Positions 1,685 through 10,981 of a stretch of 11,123 nt of DNA are shown here, piece after piece. This DNA comes from Promethearchaeota archaeon (GTDB lineage Archaea; Asgardarchaeota; Lokiarchaeia; Sigyniarchaeales; SOKP01). The DNA is taken from positions 1 through 11,123 of the forward strand of contig JAHPZJ010000017.1 of NCBI GenBank assembly GCA_019058245.1. The letters are read 5' to 3'. The translations under genes and the position numbers were made by a program. The first letter of the stretch is position 1. The number at the start of each line of letters is the position of its first letter. Under the pieces are notes generated by a model that worked only from the letters and a program-made list of their open reading frames with translations, had not been told where the DNA came from and did not search any database.

Positions 1685-2692
1685 ATGAAAGCTGCTATAT
1701 TTAATGGGAAAGAAATAACGATAAGAAATGTATCTGACCCTAAAATAAAAGACTCTGAAGTCTTGGTTCGTGTTAAAGTAGCTGGAATCTGTGGTACAGA
1801 TCTTGCTATCGTTAATGGATATCTCCCAACACCTACACCAATTATTTTAGGGCATGAATTTGTTGGTATAGTTGAAAAAGTAGGTAAAGATGTTGATAAA
1901 TCTTGGCTAAATAAGAGAATAACTTCAGAAATTAATACTAATATTGATTTTAACTGTTATTATTGCAAATTAGGGATATATACTCAATGTATTTCTCGTA
2001 AAGCGATTGGAATTGATGTTGACGGAGCTTTAGCAGAACTTATTGCTTTAGAATCATATTTATTACATGAAATTCCAGATTTTATTTCTGATGATGAAGC
2101 TACGTTTATTGAACCTCTTGCTGCAGCTTTTCAGGTTTTCGAAATGATGCCTATAGATGACGATGATAAAGTAATTGCTATTTTTGGGCTTGGTAAGCTT
2201 GGATTATTGATAAGTCAAGTCGCTAAATTAAAAGGTTTAGAAATAATTGGGGTGGATGAGTCAGATAGGAAATTAAAGCTAGCGAAAAAATTGGGAGTTA
2301 AAGAAATCATTAATCGATTAAAAGAAAAAAATATTCCGAATGTAATACAAAACTTCACAGATGGATTAGGAGCAGATATGGTAATTGATGCGACAGGTAA
2401 TCCAGACGCATTAGGGGATATAATTGCTTCTTGTAGAACCAGAGGAAAAATTCATATAAAAAGTACGTATGGAATTGAAACCCCTATTAATCTTACTGAT
2501 GTTGTAGTAAGAGAATTGACTCTTTATAGTAGTAGATGTGGTCCATTTGAAAAAGCTATAGAGGGAATAAAATCGGGAAATATAAAGGTTGAAGAATTAA
2601 TTTCTGATAAATTTCAGTTGAGTGAAATAAATAAAGCTTTTGAATCCTATAAATTAAGCCAAGATCACATTAAGACAATTATTCAGATATAA
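1685..2692 (+). CDS. Zn-dependent medium-chain dehydrogenase/reductase (threonine/sugar-alcohol dehydrogenase-like MDR)
   Basis: GICGTD (catalytic Zn Cys36), LGHEFVG, structural Zn lobe D88-x2-C91-x2-C94-x7-C102, EPLAAA, GLGKLG nucleotide-binding motif, DATG, IKST and SRCGPF motifs. Confidence 0.93.
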   Translation: MKAAIFNGKEITIRNVSDPKIKDSEVLVRVKVAGICGTDLAIVNGYLPTPTPIILGHEFVGIVEKVGKDVDKSWLNKRITSEINTNIDFNCYYCKLGIYTQCISRKAIGIDVDGALAELIALESYLLHEIPDFISDDEATFIEPLAAAFQVFEMMPIDDDDKVIAIFGLGKLGLLISQVAKLKGLEIIGVDESDRKLKLAKKLGVKEIINRLKEKNIPNVIQNFTDGLGADMVIDATGNPDALGDIIASCRTRGKIHIKSTYGIETPINLTDVVVRELTLYSSRCGPFEKAIEGIKSGNIKVEELISDKFQLSEINKAFESYKLSQDHIKTIIQI

Positions 2693-5179: not shown

Positions 5180-7051
5180 ATGAGCAGAGAAGATAAAGAA
5201 ACTACAGCTCTCGAGTATGAAGAAAACAATGAAGAAGTATTAAAAGAAGAATTAAGTCTACAATTTCATTTGTATATCTTAATTTTTGCTATAATTTATT
5301 ATGTGTCATGGCTGGTACCTGGATTTGTTTTTTGGTTATATTTTATGGGTCCATTTCGAATATTTTTCTTAGAAAATTTGGATTTTTTCTCAATTTTTAC
5401 AAATATTAATTCATTGTTAACTCTATTATCTATGCCAATTATACTTATTAGCTGTTATTTACTCCATTTGTTATTAATTGGTTTAACAACACGCATTATT
5501 TGGAAAATCACTGAGAAGATTTCACCCTCAAAATCAGGTGTGATACCACGAAATATTAGAAGCAGGACTGCAAATTATTATCATATTAGAAGCTTTATGA
5601 TCAAATATGGGAAAAATACTTTTACTAAAGGGATGTTCCCTTGGTTATCTAATTGGTTTTTCAATACAGTTGGCTCAAATAAAATTGGTAAAGGTACAAC
5701 AATCGAAGAGTCTGTAGGTAATGATAAATTTATTGATATTGGTAAAAATTGTTATATTGGCGTGAATGCTACATTAGCGAGTCATTTACTTCAAGGAATT
5801 TTTGGCAACATTACTTATTTTGAGATTAAGGCAGGAGATAATGTTACAACTGCTGCTATGAATCAAGTTGGTCCAGGATCAGAACTTAATGATAATTCTT
5901 TTTTATTACCATTAGCTTCAACAAGTAAACATAGCATCGCAAAGGGAGGTTATTATTTTGGAATACCATTTAGAAAGATCTTTAGAAAAAAAATATTAAA
6001 TTATCTTGATTTATCTCCAAAAGATTTGGAAAGGAATGAAAATATTGAAGGATATAAAGATAAAAAACTTATTAAAGAACTTAAAAAAAAGAATCTTTTA
6101 CAAAATGATGTTGATTACGTTCATAGAGAAAATGCTGTAATAGAAGAACAAAAGGAGGTACAAATAGATATCAATAATTTATCAGATGAAGAATTAGCTA
6201 TTGATTTTGCTACTAGCTCAGCAGTAAGTCGAATAAATATAAAGTTTTTAATTGTATATTTACCTCTTTTATGGGTTGCGGGATTAGTAACTACAATAAT
6301 TTGGTATTGGTATTCTGAAAATGAATTAAGTTCAATGCATTTTCGGTTGGAATTTTTCCTATTCTTTCCACTAATTTTATTCGGTCTAATATATATCTTT
6401 ATTGTGGCATGCTTACTTTTTAGTAAGTTGCTCTTACTGTTAGTTAATCTCATTCATAAACCTAAGGAAGGTGTATTCAAAGCTGAAAAAAGAAATAAAG
6501 ATTATGAATTTTGGATGATAAGAACCGAATTAAAAAAGTTGGGTTTATGGTTTATGAGAAATTCTCCATTACCATGGACTGATGTGGTTGCTTTAAAATT
6601 ATTTGGAGTCGATATGGATTCATCAAGTCATTTGCCTGATGCATGGTGCGATCCAGAATTCGTTAAATTTGGTAGAAAGAATCTAATTGGGCAAGGAGCT
6701 TTAATAATGTCGAGTATGGTAGTTGGAAGATATTTATTAATAAAAAAGATATTTTTTGATGATTATGTAATGGTTGGAGGGCATACAACAATATCTCCTG
6801 GCACAATTATCGGCAAAGAATCTGTAATAGGTGCTGTTAGTTCAACAACATATAATCAGGTTTTGGAACCAGGCTGGGTGTATTTTGGATTCCCCGCTAT
6901 TAAACTCAAGGAAAACAAATATGCTGAAGAAAAAAGAGATGTAATTATTAAGCGTGATGTTGATGGCGAAAAAAAATTCACAACTATCCATGAAGTAAAT
7001 ATTGATGAAGATAAAAAAAAATTAATTAAAACTCAAAAAGAAAAGGTATGA
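5180..7051 (+). CDS. Membrane protein with two [TM pair + LbH] modules; Pls/PosA C-terminal-like (paralog B)
   Basis: Same architecture as 2809..4635, with shared blocks NYYHIRS(M/F)MIKYGKN, PWLSNWFFN, IGKGTT, LASH, LLPLAST, RKIFRKK, NLIHKPKEG, RTELKK, YNQ(I/V)LEPGW and HEVNIDEDK. Confidence 0.8.
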   Translation: MSREDKETTALEYEENNEEVLKEELSLQFHLYILIFAIIYYVSWLVPGFVFWLYFMGPFRIFFLENLDFFSIFTNINSLLTLLSMPIILISCYLLHLLLIGLTTRIIWKITEKISPSKSGVIPRNIRSRTANYYHIRSFMIKYGKNTFTKGMFPWLSNWFFNTVGSNKIGKGTTIEESVGNDKFIDIGKNCYIGVNATLASHLLQGIFGNITYFEIKAGDNVTTAAMNQVGPGSELNDNSFLLPLASTSKHSIAKGGYYFGIPFRKIFRKKILNYLDLSPKDLERNENIEGYKDKKLIKELKKKNLLQNDVDYVHRENAVIEEQKEVQIDINNLSDEELAIDFATSSAVSRINIKFLIVYLPLLWVAGLVTTIIWYWYSENELSSMHFRLEFFLFFPLILFGLIYIFIVACLLFSKLLLLLVNLIHKPKEGVFKAEKRNKDYEFWMIRTELKKLGLWFMRNSPLPWTDVVALKLFGVDMDSSSHLPDAWCDPEFVKFGRKNLIGQGALIMSSMVVGRYLLIKKIFFDDYVMVGGHTTISPGTIIGKESVIGAVSSTTYNQVLEPGWVYFGFPAIKLKENKYAEEKRDVIIKRDVDGEKKFTTIHEVNIDEDKKKLIKTQKEKV

Positions 7052-8001
7052 TAATGAGTGTCCCAAATACGATGAGAGTAGGGCCTTTCACGCCTACAGT
7101 TCTAGTAAAAAAGAGATATTTAATATTTTATTTTTTCCTAATTTGGATAAGTATTATTCCTGTACTTTTAGAATTTTGGGTCTATTGGCGTTTTTTATGG
7201 AATTATGAGAGACCTATTCATTTTTATACCTTTCTTCCTCTTCTAATATTTGGAATGTATATATCTATAGTGTTTTTTTCTATTTTATTTGCTAAAATAT
7301 TATTAATAATAATTAATGCAATACATAAACCTCGAGAAGGTGTATTCTTACGTATCCCAGAAGATAAAGATTATAGATATTGGAGTCTTCGAAATACAAT
7401 TAAGCGGTGGCCAATATGGCTTGCTCATAAATTTCCCTTTCCTTTCTTGGACAATATCTGTTTTAAAGCTTTTGGTGTAAAAACAAAATTCTCAAACTCT
7501 CTATTTGAAGGGTGGGTTGATACAGAATTTATAGAATTTGGTAAAGACGTAGTGGTAGGTCAAGGTGCAATCATTCAATCCGCTGTCATTATAGGTAATT
7601 TATTAATAATTCGGAAGACTATGATTGAAGATGATGTGAGGATTGGATCACATGCAATAGTTATGCCTGGTACTCATATTGAAAATAAATGTATCCTAGC
7701 AGCGAATTCTGTAACCACAATTGGACAGGTTTTAGAAAAAGAATATATATATGTGGGTATTCCCGCAAAGAAATTCAAAAAGAATTTTTTCTTTGAAGAT
7801 GGATTGGAAAATAAAATTGGTCATGTTGAAGATATCGAAAAATTAAGAGAAAAGTACGAGGAAATTTATACAAAACGTTACGATCAACTTACTCGTAAAG
7901 ATCGTAGAGAAAAAAAGAGAGAAAAAAAAGAAGAAGAGAAAAAGAGATTTGATAAAGGAGTAGAGGAATGGGACGATTTTGATGATGATTTCAATATTTA
8001 G
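7048..8001 (+). CDS. Membrane protein with a single [TM pair + LbH] module and a charged C-terminal tail; translationally coupled to paralog B
   Basis: ATGA start/stop overlap at 7048-7051 (alternative Met at 7054). Two TM segments are followed by IHKPREGVF...YRYW, EFGKDVVVGQGA, MIEDDVRIGSHA, MPGTHIEN and YVGIPAK. It is most similar to module 2 of the two long paralogs. Confidence 0.82.
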   Translation: MIMSVPNTMRVGPFTPTVLVKKRYLIFYFFLIWISIIPVLLEFWVYWRFLWNYERPIHFYTFLPLLIFGMYISIVFFSILFAKILLIIINAIHKPREGVFLRIPEDKDYRYWSLRNTIKRWPIWLAHKFPFPFLDNICFKAFGVKTKFSNSLFEGWVDTEFIEFGKDVVVGQGAIIQSAVIIGNLLIIRKTMIEDDVRIGSHAIVMPGTHIENKCILAANSVTTIGQVLEKEYIYVGIPAKKFKKNFFFEDGLENKIGHVEDIEKLREKYEEIYTKRYDQLTRKDRREKKREKKEEEKKRFDKGVEEWDDFDDDFNI

Positions 8002-8039: not shown

Positions 8040-8747
8040 TCATTTTAACTTAAAATACATCCTTCTATTGTTCTTACATTTATTAACAGTTTTGATTAAT
8101 TCAATTTTACCAATTTCTTTAAGGTGTTTAATATGAGTCCCTCCATCGACTTGCTCATCGATATCTCCTATTCTGATAATACGAAATTCGCTAATTTTTT
8201 CCGGTAATCCTACAGCTAAACGTGCTAATTCTGGTTTTACTATTACTTCTTCTCTTGACATATAATCAATAGTAATTGATAGATCCTGCTCTATAAGTTT
8301 GTTTGCCTCCTCAACAAAATCCCGTAATTTTTCAGGAGAGTAATCTTGCATTGAGAAATCCATCCTCGTTTTATCTAATTCAATTTGATTACCTGTAATT
8401 TTCGCATCAGCTCTTTTATAAAGAATGCTGCTAATTAGATGCGAAGCTGTATGATATCGCATAAAGGTATATCTTCTTTCCCAATCGATCTCACAACTAA
8501 CTTCATCACCCACCTTTAATCCGATTTTATCTACTTCATGACTAATATAACCCGAGAATTTATCGACATAGATTACTTTAAATTTTAGATCATTTTTTAT
8601 AATAAATCCCTCATCCCAAGGCTGTCCCCCACCTTTAGGATAGAATGCTGTTTGCTCAAGAAGAATATACTTTCCATCAGTAACACTTACAACTTTAGTA
8701 TTCCAACTCTTAAGATAAGAATTATCCATATATAAAGCTCTAACCAT
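8040..8747 (-). CDS. alaXM: Alanyl-tRNA editing protein AlaX-M (trans-editing deacylase of mischarged tRNA-Ala)
   Basis: LYMDNSY start, TAFYPKGGGQPWDEG glycine-rich motif, IDWERRY, HTASH (HxxxH), GNQI, RMDF and DGGTH (the CGGTH position). The 235-aa length is typical of the medium AlaX class. Confidence 0.92.
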   Translation of the reverse strand: MVRALYMDNSYLKSWNTKVVSVTDGKYILLEQTAFYPKGGGQPWDEGFIIKNDLKFKVIYVDKFSGYISHEVDKIGLKVGDEVSCEIDWERRYTFMRYHTASHLISSILYKRADAKITGNQIELDKTRMDFSMQDYSPEKLRDFVEEANKLIEQDLSITIDYMSREEVIVKPELARLAVGLPEKISEFRIIRIGDIDEQVDGGTHIKHLKEIGKIELIKTVNKCKNNRRMYFKLK

Positions 8748-8775: not shown

Positions 8776-9109
8776 TATTGACTTTTATTAGTCTTAGGAT
8801 TTCTTAGAATTTTTTAATTTATTTTTAATATATTGAATAGAAAGAATAACCTTGGCAGAAAAAAATAAAATTTTTTATAGTAATTTTAATAGTTTTCTCA
8901 CAAATTAAAGAATTTAAACTTTTTTGTTTTTTTAATTTGAGATATTTTATTTTTATATATCGTATTCTGATATATCCTATTTGGGAATATTAAGTTTTTA
9001 TACAAAGTCAACTAAATCATTGATTATAGTTTTTATTTACTAAAAAACTGAAAAAAAAAATTTTTTTCAAAAAAAAAATAACATAAAACATATTAGAGGT
9101 TTGTTTTAT

Positions 9110-10981
9110 ATGGAAAAAGAAAGAAAAACAAAGATGTTTTTAATAATTTGTACGGCGTTCATACTTTTCTGTGGATTAATGGCATTTGAATATCAAACTA
9201 ATTTTAATACTATTAATGTAAGCGAAGTTCAAATTACAGATCCAAATGGATATACAATTGTAGGGAAACTTTTTCGTCCTAACGATGTAAGTTCAGTAAA
9301 TACAGCTCCTGGAATTCTTGGATTACATGGATATAATAATGATAAGAATATTCAAAGAGGGACCGCTCTAGAATTAGCCAAAGCAGGATTTGTAGTGTTA
9401 ATAATTGACCAAGATGGTCATGGATCTTCGGATTCTCCTTATTATGGTATAGCTGATATTACCGAAGCTAGTGCTGCTTATGATTGGTTGGAGGCGCAAC
9501 CATATGTTAATGGATCTACTGTTCAGGGCGAAACTATGATGGGCATTTATGGTCATTCAATGGGCTATATTAAAGGTTGGGTATTAGCACAGGCTAAACC
9601 AGATCATGATGCATGCGTATTCGAATCCTTTCCACCACAAATCAAATTTCCGAATGTTCACAATGTTTTACATACTTGGGCTGAATATGAAGAATGGTAT
9701 GCTACAGATTTATATACTAGTGTATATTATGGATTTGGATATACTGCAAACATGAGTGTAAAGGAAGTTAAAGACACAGGACTACTTGTAACAGGCTTAA
9801 ATGGAGGATTGCTAGGTCCTGGCGAAGTAGATACAACTTATGGTAATTTTTCACTTGGAACGGCGTTTCGAACCCATTATAATATTGGTGTTACCCATCC
9901 AGGATTAACAATGGACCAATCCTGTAATAAAGAGATTGTAGCTTGGTTCTTACAGTCATTAAAGGGCGAAACTGAAGCTAACGCGATGAGTGCCGCAGCT
10001 ATAAGCGGTCAAACATATATTGCTGTGGAAGTATTCCAATGTTTGGCTTTACTTACAATTTTTGCTTCTCTGATCTTCTTAACTAAATGGCTATTAATGA
10101 CAAACTTTTTCAAAGAAGTTGTACAACCAATGCCAGAACGCACAACATTTATTTCAGAAAAGAAGTGGGCTTGGTGGGCGGCTGCTACACTTAATAATGT
10201 CATTGCTGCAATTGCTTATATATTTGGTGTAAATGCTGATGAAGCTTGGCATTTCAAAGCGCCATTTGAAATGGGAATGATTAATAATTTCTTAGGATTT
10301 TATCTCTATTGTTCCTTAATTGGACTTATTTTCGTCGTTGTGTGGTATTTCGTTACTTGGAGGCAAAATAGAGAGAGTATAGCCCCATATGATCTTGGAA
10401 TTACTTATGGCAAGGAGAATAAGAAAGAAGCTTTGCAGATATTCTTAAAGACTTGTCTAATAGCTGTAATTCTTTTTGCGTGGATGTATTTATTGGTAAG
10501 CATCTTTCAGACATTCTTCGTAATTGAAATAGGAGTATTCTGGACGTTCATGAAGATGTTCACACTGCAGCGATTATTTATGTTCTTACTCTACCTACCA
10601 CTGATTTTACCATTTTTCTTAATAATAGGTGGAGTATTTGCATTTGCAGAACTTCGTCAAAAAGAAGCAAGTTCAGGAATCAAAACACAACTGATTTGGT
10701 GGGCAAAACTTTGTTACGTTATGGTATTTGGTCTTTTCATAGTATTTGTAATTCAATATGTTGGATTTTGGGTCGGTCAAAATCCTACACTCAAGAGTCT
10801 GGAGTCAACACCAATAATGCCACTTCAATTATGGTTCGTAGTTCCAGTTACTATGTTAATCTTATTCTTTATGGTCTTCTGGTATCGTAAAACGGGGAAA
10901 ATTTATCTTGGATCCATTATGGCTTCACTCCTCACAACTTGGTTCTTGACAGTTTCTACAATAATGGGTCCAGCTTTATAA
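9110..10981 (+). CDS. Membrane-bound alpha/beta-hydrolase (Ser esterase/peptidase-like) with an N-terminal anchor and a multi-TM C-terminal domain
   Basis: N-terminal hydrophobic helix, LHGY oxyanion motif, LAKAGFVVLIIDQDGHGSS, GHSMG nucleophile elbow (Ser codon 9557-9559), candidate catalytic His in THPG, and about 8-9 hydrophobic segments at the C-terminus. The start is moved from TTG 9101 to ATG 9110 because GAGGT (9096-9100) is 9 nt upstream of that ATG. Confidence 0.85.
   Translation: MEKERKTKMFLIICTAFILFCGLMAFEYQTNFNTINVSEVQITDPNGYTIVGKLFRPNDVSSVNTAPGILGLHGYNNDKNIQRGTALELAKAGFVVLIIDQDGHGSSDSPYYGIADITEASAAYDWLEAQPYVNGSTVQGETMMGIYGHSMGYIKGWVLAQAKPDHDACVFESFPPQIKFPNVHNVLHTWAEYEEWYATDLYTSVYYGFGYTANMSVKEVKDTGLLVTGLNGGLLGPGEVDTTYGNFSLGTAFRTHYNIGVTHPGLTMDQSCNKEIVAWFLQSLKGETEANAMSAAAISGQTYIAVEVFQCLALLTIFASLIFLTKWLLMTNFFKEVVQPMPERTTFISEKKWAWWAAATLNNVIAAIAYIFGVNADEAWHFKAPFEMGMINNFLGFYLYCSLIGLIFVVVWYFVTWRQNRESIAPYDLGITYGKENKKEALQIFLKTCLIAVILFAWMYLLVSIFQTFFVIEIGVFWTFMKMFTLQRLFMFLLYLPLILPFFLIIGGVFAFAELRQKEASSGIKTQLIWWAKLCYVMVFGLFIVFVIQYVGFWVGQNPTLKSLESTPIMPLQLWFVVPVTMLILFFMVFWYRKTGKIYLGSIMASLLTTWFLTVSTIMGPAL

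Follow-up and report, generated by a model that had tools for sequence, protein, structure and literature searches.

Two coupled genes in a Promethearchaeota archaeon (assembly GCA_019058245.1, contig JAHPZJ010000017.1), encoding P0001 (623 aa) and P0002 (317 aa), together carry three membrane modules, A, B, and C, each consisting of a transmembrane (TM) helix pair followed by a left-handed beta-helix (LbH). We consider it probable that these modules build a single hetero-oligomeric membrane acyltransferase ring with one active site, a coenzyme A (CoA) thioester as donor, and an acceptor in the membrane. Sequence comparison supports the three-module ring architecture well; it resembles the terminal region of the Pls/PosA synthetases, minus their amino-acid-activating parts and split over two genes. 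The stretch analyzed in this study (11,123 nucleotides, hereafter the window) opens a 119-kb contig, covering its first 11.1 kb, in an assembly of 3.09 Mb (29% G+C, 76% complete), and the best matches of its proteins were named as Promethearchaeota or Asgard metagenome-assembled genomes (MAGs).

Module Anatomy and Gene Coupling

Hydropathy analysis identified two hydrophobic pairs in P0001 (approximately residues 28-56/76-104 and 355-376/391-423), with hexapeptide coils after each pair. P0002 had a single TM pair (residues 22-51 and 56-92) followed by an LbH, as also indicated by its AlphaFold2 (AF2) model. Both proteins matched the Pfam Hexapep family (PF00132) with 30.6 and 38.3 bits, above the gathering cut-off of 27. 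Additionally, residues 355-573 of P0001 aligned with residues 23-240 of P0002 (36% identity, E 5e-51), and residues 85-263 with residues 63-239 (23% identity, E 8e-9); judged from these alignments, the repeats are highly significant and not due to chance. An earlier interpretation made from the DNA letters without database searches (hereafter the sequence-only reading) had placed two [TM-TM-LbH] modules in the 623-aa gene and one in the coupled gene, and this arrangement was borne out by hydropathy, Hexapep matches, and repeat alignments. Its proposal of a closing aromatic-x-G-x-P motif also held for all three modules (YFGIP at residue 259 and YFGFP at residue 568 of P0001; YVGIP at residue 235 of P0002). 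The PxEG-type segment that it placed after TM2 was present in module B of P0001 (HKPKEG, residue 426) and in module C of P0002 (HKPREG, residue 93), but module A has SPSKSG at the equivalent position.

The ATGA overlap described in the same reading is present at 7048-7051, these four bases being common to the two ORFs. However, P0002 orthologues begin with MSVPNTMR, which corresponds to the second ATG here (7054), two bases past the TGA stop, and in loci L009, L010, and L015 this start itself overlaps the gene 1 stop as ATGA. The two genes are tightly coupled with either start. More than 400 homologues of P0001 (606-646 aa) were found in Asgard MAGs, with identities of 59-95% among the matches listed. 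The charged linker between modules A and B was variable in the alignment of these homologues, and it is absent where A and B are encoded by separate genes. The span of 5180-8001 that the sequence-only reading gave to the system proved too short, as a third system gene, the upstream open reading frame (ORF) encoding P0003 (Table 1), had been left out.

Cyclic Order of the Module Types

Module types were defined by a module hidden Markov model (HMM) and a tree of 95 modules, and type-specific HMMs were then run on the loci. The tree resolved three Asgard types, in which A comprises the first module of P0001 and P0003, B their second module, and C the module of P0002; the type A and type C clades had support values of 99 and 96, respectively. 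The type-specific HMMs read P0001 as A, then B. In the Asgard loci scanned in this way, including those from six other genomes, the order A, then B, then C was always kept, cyclically, across several kinds of packaging: three adjacent genes (L013, L014 twice, L015, and L016), AB+C (the window, L010, L013, L014, and L015), CA+B (contig C13 of the same genome), and one fused C-A-B protein of 797 aa (P0124, found in two MAGs). In addition, the immediate upstream neighbor of close P0002 relatives (at least 59% identity) was a same-strand B module in all 23 cases that could be assessed. Since all of these packagings are cyclic permutations of one order, as expected if the modules close a ring that fission or fusion can cut anywhere, they provide strong comparative evidence that modules A, B, and C would belong to one hetero-assembly.

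The CA gene on contig C13 (C13:200493-202128, L003) has an unusual start. No in-frame ATG, GTG, or TTG was found ahead of its conserved N-terminus ISIPSSFRVGP (from 200518), and the ATG at 200493 lies 3k+1 bases out of frame. A frameshift, a non-canonical start, or a small insert could account for this; at this gene start, no stable or clear bulge-helix-bulge fold of a tRNA-type mini-intron was seen. Other membrane-LbH genes were also found in the genome. On contig C28 (261250-264458), two single modules that belong to other types (288 aa and 245 aa) form a conserved pair. The pair recurs in most family genomes, and the frame around its second module reaches about 780 aa in G008 and G077. The 531-aa gene located 3' of this pair was rejected as a third module, since it encodes a double metallophosphoesterase that has neither a TM helix nor a module. 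A 374-aa ORF at C13:7000-10600 (L001) represents a different membrane-LbH architecture, with several TM helices in its N-terminal part and a single LbH at its C-terminus, the latter matching the C3 end of TIGR02353.

Predicted Assembly of P0001 and P0002

The P0001+P0002 pair (residues 16-600 and 1-262, respectively) was modeled by ESMFold2 with purpose-built alignments and three controls. The complex reached an ipSAE of 0.83, a value attained by 58 of 80 solved complexes and 2 of 110 mismatched pairs, compared with 0.00 for the best of the three controls; the runs shared at least 76% of contacts, and the predicted local distance difference test (pLDDT) value of the partner was at least 81. 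Module C was modeled in contact with TM2 of A (residues 82-90), the LbH of A (174-262), the pre-TM1/TM1 segment of B (338-384), and the LbH of B (489-571). In the prediction, the LbH of C contacts the LbHs of both A and B, which would give a trimeric beta-helix bundle, and since C touches both partners in the membrane part as well as in the beta-helix part, the ring is predicted to close in both layers. The AF2 model of P0002 alone (mean pLDDT 87.8) contained, in order, TM, TM, strand, two helices, LbH, and a long C-terminal helix.

The sequence-only reading had proposed that the pair forms a 1:1 complex that is a six-TM pseudo-trimer, and this idea is supported by the cyclic order together with the complex model; the view of the three modules as one assembly is further strengthened by their occurrence in split, permuted, and fully fused forms, with the 2+1 pair being both syntenic (AB+C) and fused (C-A-B) elsewhere. 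In such an assembly, P0001 (A and B) and P0002 (C) would pack 1:1 into a pseudo-threefold ring whose six TM helices lie in the membrane and whose three left-handed beta-helices form a bundle on the cytoplasmic side. The comparison of split and fused gene forms is a stronger argument for this assembly than the complex score.

A Single Conserved Histidine in Module A

LbH acyltransferases are trimers with active sites at the subunit interfaces. We counted the alignment column of His202 of P0001 across the modules and found His in 121 of 121 A modules and Ser in 121 of 121 B modules of the AB proteins, with Ser also in the type C modules; His202 was nearly invariant in divergent type A modules as well. 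The same column contained His in module 3 of 120 of 120 Pls/PosA proteins, in which modules 1 and 2 rarely have it, and in module 2 of all three bacterial stand-alone three-module proteins (P0215, P0232, and P0270). The retention of His in module A alone suggests an asymmetric ring with a single active site. The site would be located at the interface of A with a neighbor, with His202 as the candidate catalyst, and modules B and C would act as structural or substrate-binding partners.

Soluble LbH acyl-CoA transferases, such as Maa (1ocx), LacA, YvoF/NF058585, and the sugar N-acetyltransferases, resemble the Asgard modules in combining an LbH with a helical N-terminal extension. The active sites of Maa/LacA-type enzymes lie between subunits. 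These enzymes are soluble and have three identical subunits and three sites, whereas the Asgard modules bear TM hairpins, differ from one another, and have one His among them. When the sequence of module A by itself was compared with solved structures, no significant match was found; the type A profile matched LacA/Maa among these structures. In the fold search against solved structures, the best matches were maltose O-acetyltransferase and sugar N-acetyltransferases; these matches to acyl-CoA-dependent enzymes, together with the Hexapep matches, support an acyltransferase chemistry.

Kinship to the Pls/PosA Terminal Region

TIGR02353, the model for the terminal domain of Pls/PosA family nonribosomal peptide synthetases (NRPSs), matched P0001 with 48.1 bits (E 5.7e-13) and P0002 with 33.9 bits (E 1.2e-8), the latter match spanning TM2 through the LbH. 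The comparison with this profile, as suggested in the sequence-only reading, therefore yielded significant matches into the TM region, but the scores are far below the curated cut-off of 423.1 bits and do not place the proteins in the family; no match above the cut-off was found anywhere in their own genome. Nor do the proteins have the adenylation and thiolation domains that Pls/PosA members carry on the same polypeptide, as none was found in the window ORFs and no PP-binding domain in the genome. The three tandem [2 TM + LbH] modules that characterize the Pls/PosA unit are present, though split over two coupled genes.

The relationship was also detected from the Asgard side. The Asgard module HMM found three modules in each of eight Pls/PosA proteins, with the hairpin sometimes included. 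An exhaustive P0002 search gave 694 representatives, including P0215, P0232, and P0270 with TIGR02353 scores of 168-184 bits, and P0215 as a query retrieved 693 true Pls/PosA synthetases. By these searches, the three stand-alone proteins bridge the Asgard modules to true Pls/PosA proteins. In the Atlas fold search with the P0002 model, the nearest structures after Asgard clusters were Pls/PosA synthetases (TM 0.65 over 244 residues, hairpin included). The modeled terminal domain of PosA is composed of TM, TM, strand, two helices, and LbH, forming a pseudo-threefold bundle on six bent helices (PMC10522769), and P0002 shares the fold order described for that model. The sequence search against solved structures returned generic LbH proteins alone and no Pls-type structure. 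Taken together, the kinship to the Pls/PosA terminal region, TM hairpin included, is real but distant, by profile and by fold. A neighboring Atlas cluster of carrier-plus-hexapeptide proteins was 52% eukaryotic, with Rotifera the most common group, and hints at Pls-like genes in rotifers.

Both systems have three modules per unit, each with a TM hairpin, P-x-x-G turn, strand, two helices, LbH, and aromatic-x-G-x-P, and in both one module keeps the His, namely C3 in Pls and A in the Asgard proteins. Unlike Pls/PosA, the Asgard system lacks adenylation and thiolation domains both in cis and in its vicinity, is split over two genes (elsewhere three genes, or permuted), and gives no sign of polymer formation. 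In the module tree, all Asgard modules clustered together, apart from Pls C1-C3. Orthology of Asgard module A to Pls C3 was rejected, as the approximately unbiased (AU) test excluded a common clade of His-bearing modules with a p value of 1.5e-49, a figure to be read in the light of composition bias and of a tested group that was named after the tree was seen. Therefore, the equivalence to the Pls condensation region claimed in the sequence-only reading stands for the architecture, but not, by the tree and the AU test, as a module-for-module orthology. In the literature, we found no paper on stand-alone archaeal forms or on TIGR02353, and none on the catalytic residues of Pls C domains.

The bacterial proteins P0215 (683 aa), P0232 (680 aa), and P0270 (960 aa) are uncharacterized and share with the Asgard system a carrier-less architecture of six TM helices and three LbHs with one His-bearing module per unit. 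They differ in being single polypeptides that are much closer to TIGR02353 and form a separate clade. The P0232 cluster (L017 7001-15407) contains genes for an EryCIII-like GT1 glycosyltransferase, a GMC oxidoreductase, a short-chain dehydrogenase/reductase (SDR), and RmlA/RmlD/dehydratase-like deoxysugar enzymes, and this glycosyltransferase/deoxysugar context is unlike the Asgard neighborhood. P0270 (L018 6304-9883) has a fused N-terminal SDR domain and is preceded by a soluble hexapeptide protein. These contexts give weak hints of glycoconjugate or lipid acylation.

Orientation, Donor, and Acceptor

The mean number of Lys and Arg residues was 4.6, 3.4, and 5.0 in the segments after TM2, compared with 0.6-0.7 in the TM1-TM2 loops. 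Positive charge thus clusters after each TM2, and all three beta-helices are read as cytoplasmic; the distribution places them together on the K/R-rich side, in agreement with the earlier expectation that all LbH domains face one side of the membrane.

The Pfam scan detected no AMP-binding or PP-binding domain in any window ORF, which agrees with the sequence-only reading that the window lacks adenylation and carrier domains. The genome scan for the corresponding stand-alone genes gave a divided result: 15 AMP-binding ligases of acyl-CoA synthetase size were identified in the genome, but neither a PP-binding domain nor a phosphopantetheinyl transferase (PPTase) was found in this 76% complete assembly, and none was found in 19 of 21 family genomes, including carriers of the system that are 98-100% complete. 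A carrier acting in trans, one of the donors suggested earlier, is therefore unlikely, and nothing supports the suggested polymerization and export of an amino-acid polymer. The lack of a carrier and PPTase makes an acyl-CoA donor more likely than Pls-style polymerization, and a CoA thioester would be the most economical choice. The ring would take its acyl group most likely from a CoA thioester and transfer it to an acceptor located in the membrane or at its surface; candidates are lipids, lipid-linked glycans, and other membrane-bound molecules.

The resemblance to Pls nevertheless raises the question of whether the Asgard proteins form a true functional analogue, that is, an iterative membrane polymerase that joins activated amino acids, or another bifunctional monomer, releases the polymer through the six-helix bundle, and takes its donor in trans (for example from an aminoacyl-CoA, directly from an adenylate-forming ligase, or from an aminoacyl-tRNA). 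Such a function would fit the module architecture and fold in common with the Pls/PosA polymerization region, TM hairpins included, the pattern of one His per ring as in Pls C3, and the AMP-binding ligases in the genome. It would also fit the AlaXM-type alanyl-tRNA editing gene that adjoins the pair here and in L013, but this neighbor is not conserved in L009 and L010, and the conserved neighborhood contains no ligase gene. The absence of a carrier domain and PPTase from 19 of 21 family genomes argues against this function, as do the lack of fused or adjacent adenylation or thiolation domains at all Asgard loci inspected and the phylogenetic position of the Asgard modules apart from Pls C1-C3; the search also found no longer, adenylation/thiolation-fused form of P0001, which is weak evidence. 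Furthermore, several diverged sets per genome are more like the substrate diversification of a modifying enzyme. We therefore regard the polymerase as improbable. A related and unlikely possibility is a carrier-independent synthase-translocase ring, in which a polymer made from a freely diffusing activated monomer, or an acylated lipid (Asgard ether/ester), would be passed into or across the membrane via the six-helix bundle; this would represent a minimal, ancestor-like form of Pls, with swappable AB proteins and a shared C setting the specificity. Pls-style polymerization remains a minority reading, and we infer that the function is that of an acyl-CoA-dependent, single-site membrane acyltransferase.

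Evidence Weighed Against the Proposed Ring

Several observations weigh against the single-site acyltransferase ring. Its support consists of sequence comparison and predicted models, and part of the ipSAE score may reflect memory, LbH homotrimers being common among solved structures. The match of His202 to the catalytic His of solved acetyltransferases was not confirmed by sequence comparison. The product of Pls is secreted, and having TM hairpins in common with it could indicate a function coupled to export, which simple acyl transfer leaves unexplained. The conserved zinc-dependent dehydrogenase and CxxCxxCC neighbors (Table 1) name no pathway. Local 1:1 pairing also does not fully account for the gene counts, as AB genes outnumber C genes by 2:1 in the window and by 3:1 in L010. 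P0003 is not accompanied by a separate C gene in the window, and its position is kept in L009, L010, and L015, with separate A, B, and C genes there in L013. Moreover, in G135, the closed genome of L009, the C gene beside AB is cut to its first approximately 140 codons (1924777-1925196) and followed by a fragment of a proton-pumping pyrophosphatase (H+-PPase), and an intact C gene with 82% identity is located about 1 Mb from AB (2934800-2935756), which points to a rearrangement. The excess of AB and the displaced C indicate that 1:1 local pairing is not the whole story; C may be shared among AB paralogues, or other single modules may replace it.

In a rival arrangement, no mixed ring would exist, and P0002 homotrimers would stand beside separate P0001 oligomers (e.g., A3 and B3 bundles) as membrane-anchored acetyltransferases that happen to be neighbors. 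AB genes without an adjacent C gene (P0003, L009, and L010) and the distant intact C gene of G135 are consistent with this arrangement, and solved LbH enzymes are mostly homotrimers. However, a fixed A-B-C order over 1+1+1, 2+1, permuted 2+1, and fused forms is hard to explain without co-assembly, the complex model sets C against both A and B, and homotrimers of B or C, which lack the His, would have no such site. We thus consider separate oligomers very unlikely.

Asymmetric LbH assemblies of another kind are known from the gamma-carbonic anhydrase (gamma-CA) CA/CAL heterotrimer of plant and protist mitochondria, which sits on the membrane arm of complex I and has retained catalytic residues in only some of its subunits. 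This heterotrimer differs from the Asgard system in its zinc chemistry and in having no TM hairpin per subunit. That the Asgard proteins are a comparable membrane LbH scaffold, gamma-CA-like or purely structural, rather than an acyltransferase, is highly unlikely. Gamma-carbonic anhydrases and complex I CA/CAL are among the solved structures best matched in sequence by P0002 and by the type A profile, and the His is lost in two of three modules, but these sequence matches extend over no more than generic C-terminal coils. By fold, the best matches are acetyltransferases that depend on acyl-CoA, the closest specific relatives are the acyl-transfer regions of Pls/PosA, and the His is strictly kept in module A, as for a working site.

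Neighboring Genes and Distribution

The coordinates of the modules and neighboring genes are listed in Table 1. The zinc-dependent dehydrogenase gene also immediately preceded the first AB (or A) gene in L009, L010, L013, L014, and L015; its nearest NCBIfam models, Tdh and scyllo-inosose dehydrogenase, were both far below their cut-offs. The CxxCxxCC gene occupied the same place and strand in the same five loci. Additionally, the positive strand at 9101-10981 carries a 626-aa ORF with a TTG start and weak alpha/beta-hydrolase Pfam matches, which was assigned to no NCBIfam family.

Table 1. Features of the three-module system and adjacent genes in the window.
Feature	Position	Strand	Basis or description
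Zinc-dependent alcohol/polyol dehydrogenase	1685-2692	+	Pfam ADH_N, ADH_zinc_N
P0003, paralogous AB gene, 608 aa	2809-4635	+	55% identical to P0001; types A, B
CxxCxxCC gene (PF03692), 131 aa	4650-5045	-	Pfam E 6e-14; between both AB genes
Gene 1, P0001, fused modules A+B	5180-7051	+	ORF and translation, 623 aa
Module A, P0001 residues 21-274	5240-6001	+	Module HMM envelope, hydropathy, type A clade
Parts of module A	TM1a 5261-5347; TM2a 5405-5491; then SPSKSG turn, helices, LbH, YFGIP	+	Hydropathy and motifs
His202 codon, candidate catalytic histidine of the whole assembly	5783-5785	+	Column conservation
Charged linker between A and B, P0001 residues 275-340	6002-6199	+	Translation
Module B, P0001 residues 341-584	6200-6931	+	Module HMM, hydropathy, tree, motifs
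Parts of module B	TM1b 6242-6307; TM2b 6350-6448; HKPKEG 6455-6472; then LbH, YFGFP	+	Hydropathy and motifs
Gene 2, P0002, module C, 317 aa	7048-8001 (orthologue-equivalent start ATG 7054)	+	ORF
Parts of P0002	TM1 7111-7200; TM2 7213-7323; HKPREG 7324-7341; LbH about 7480-7782; C-terminal charged helix 7825-7953	+	Hydropathy, AF2
AlaXM-type alanyl-tRNA editing protein, directly after the C gene	8040-8747	-	283 bits, cut-off 300

The distribution of the system was assessed in 121 genomes of the phylum with a threshold of E <= 1e-20. Relatives were found in all 15 sampled genomes of the same family and in both sampled genomes of a sister family, all 17 belonging to one order, and none was found with the same query in the other 103 sampled genomes of the phylum. 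Individual genomes contained several diverged sets of the system genes.

Implications

No solved structure and no defined catalytic residues are known for the polymerizing end of Pls/PosA. The Asgard family presents this architecture minus the NRPS parts, naturally cut into three modules, and its naturally separate subunits can be expressed, mixed, and mutated singly. The module A His, whose counterpart in Pls C3 is likewise invariant, is a testable active-site candidate for both systems. For Asgard biology, these genes represent a strongly conserved, multi-copy membrane enzyme family of one order, the product of which may be a lineage-specific modification of the envelope or lipids.

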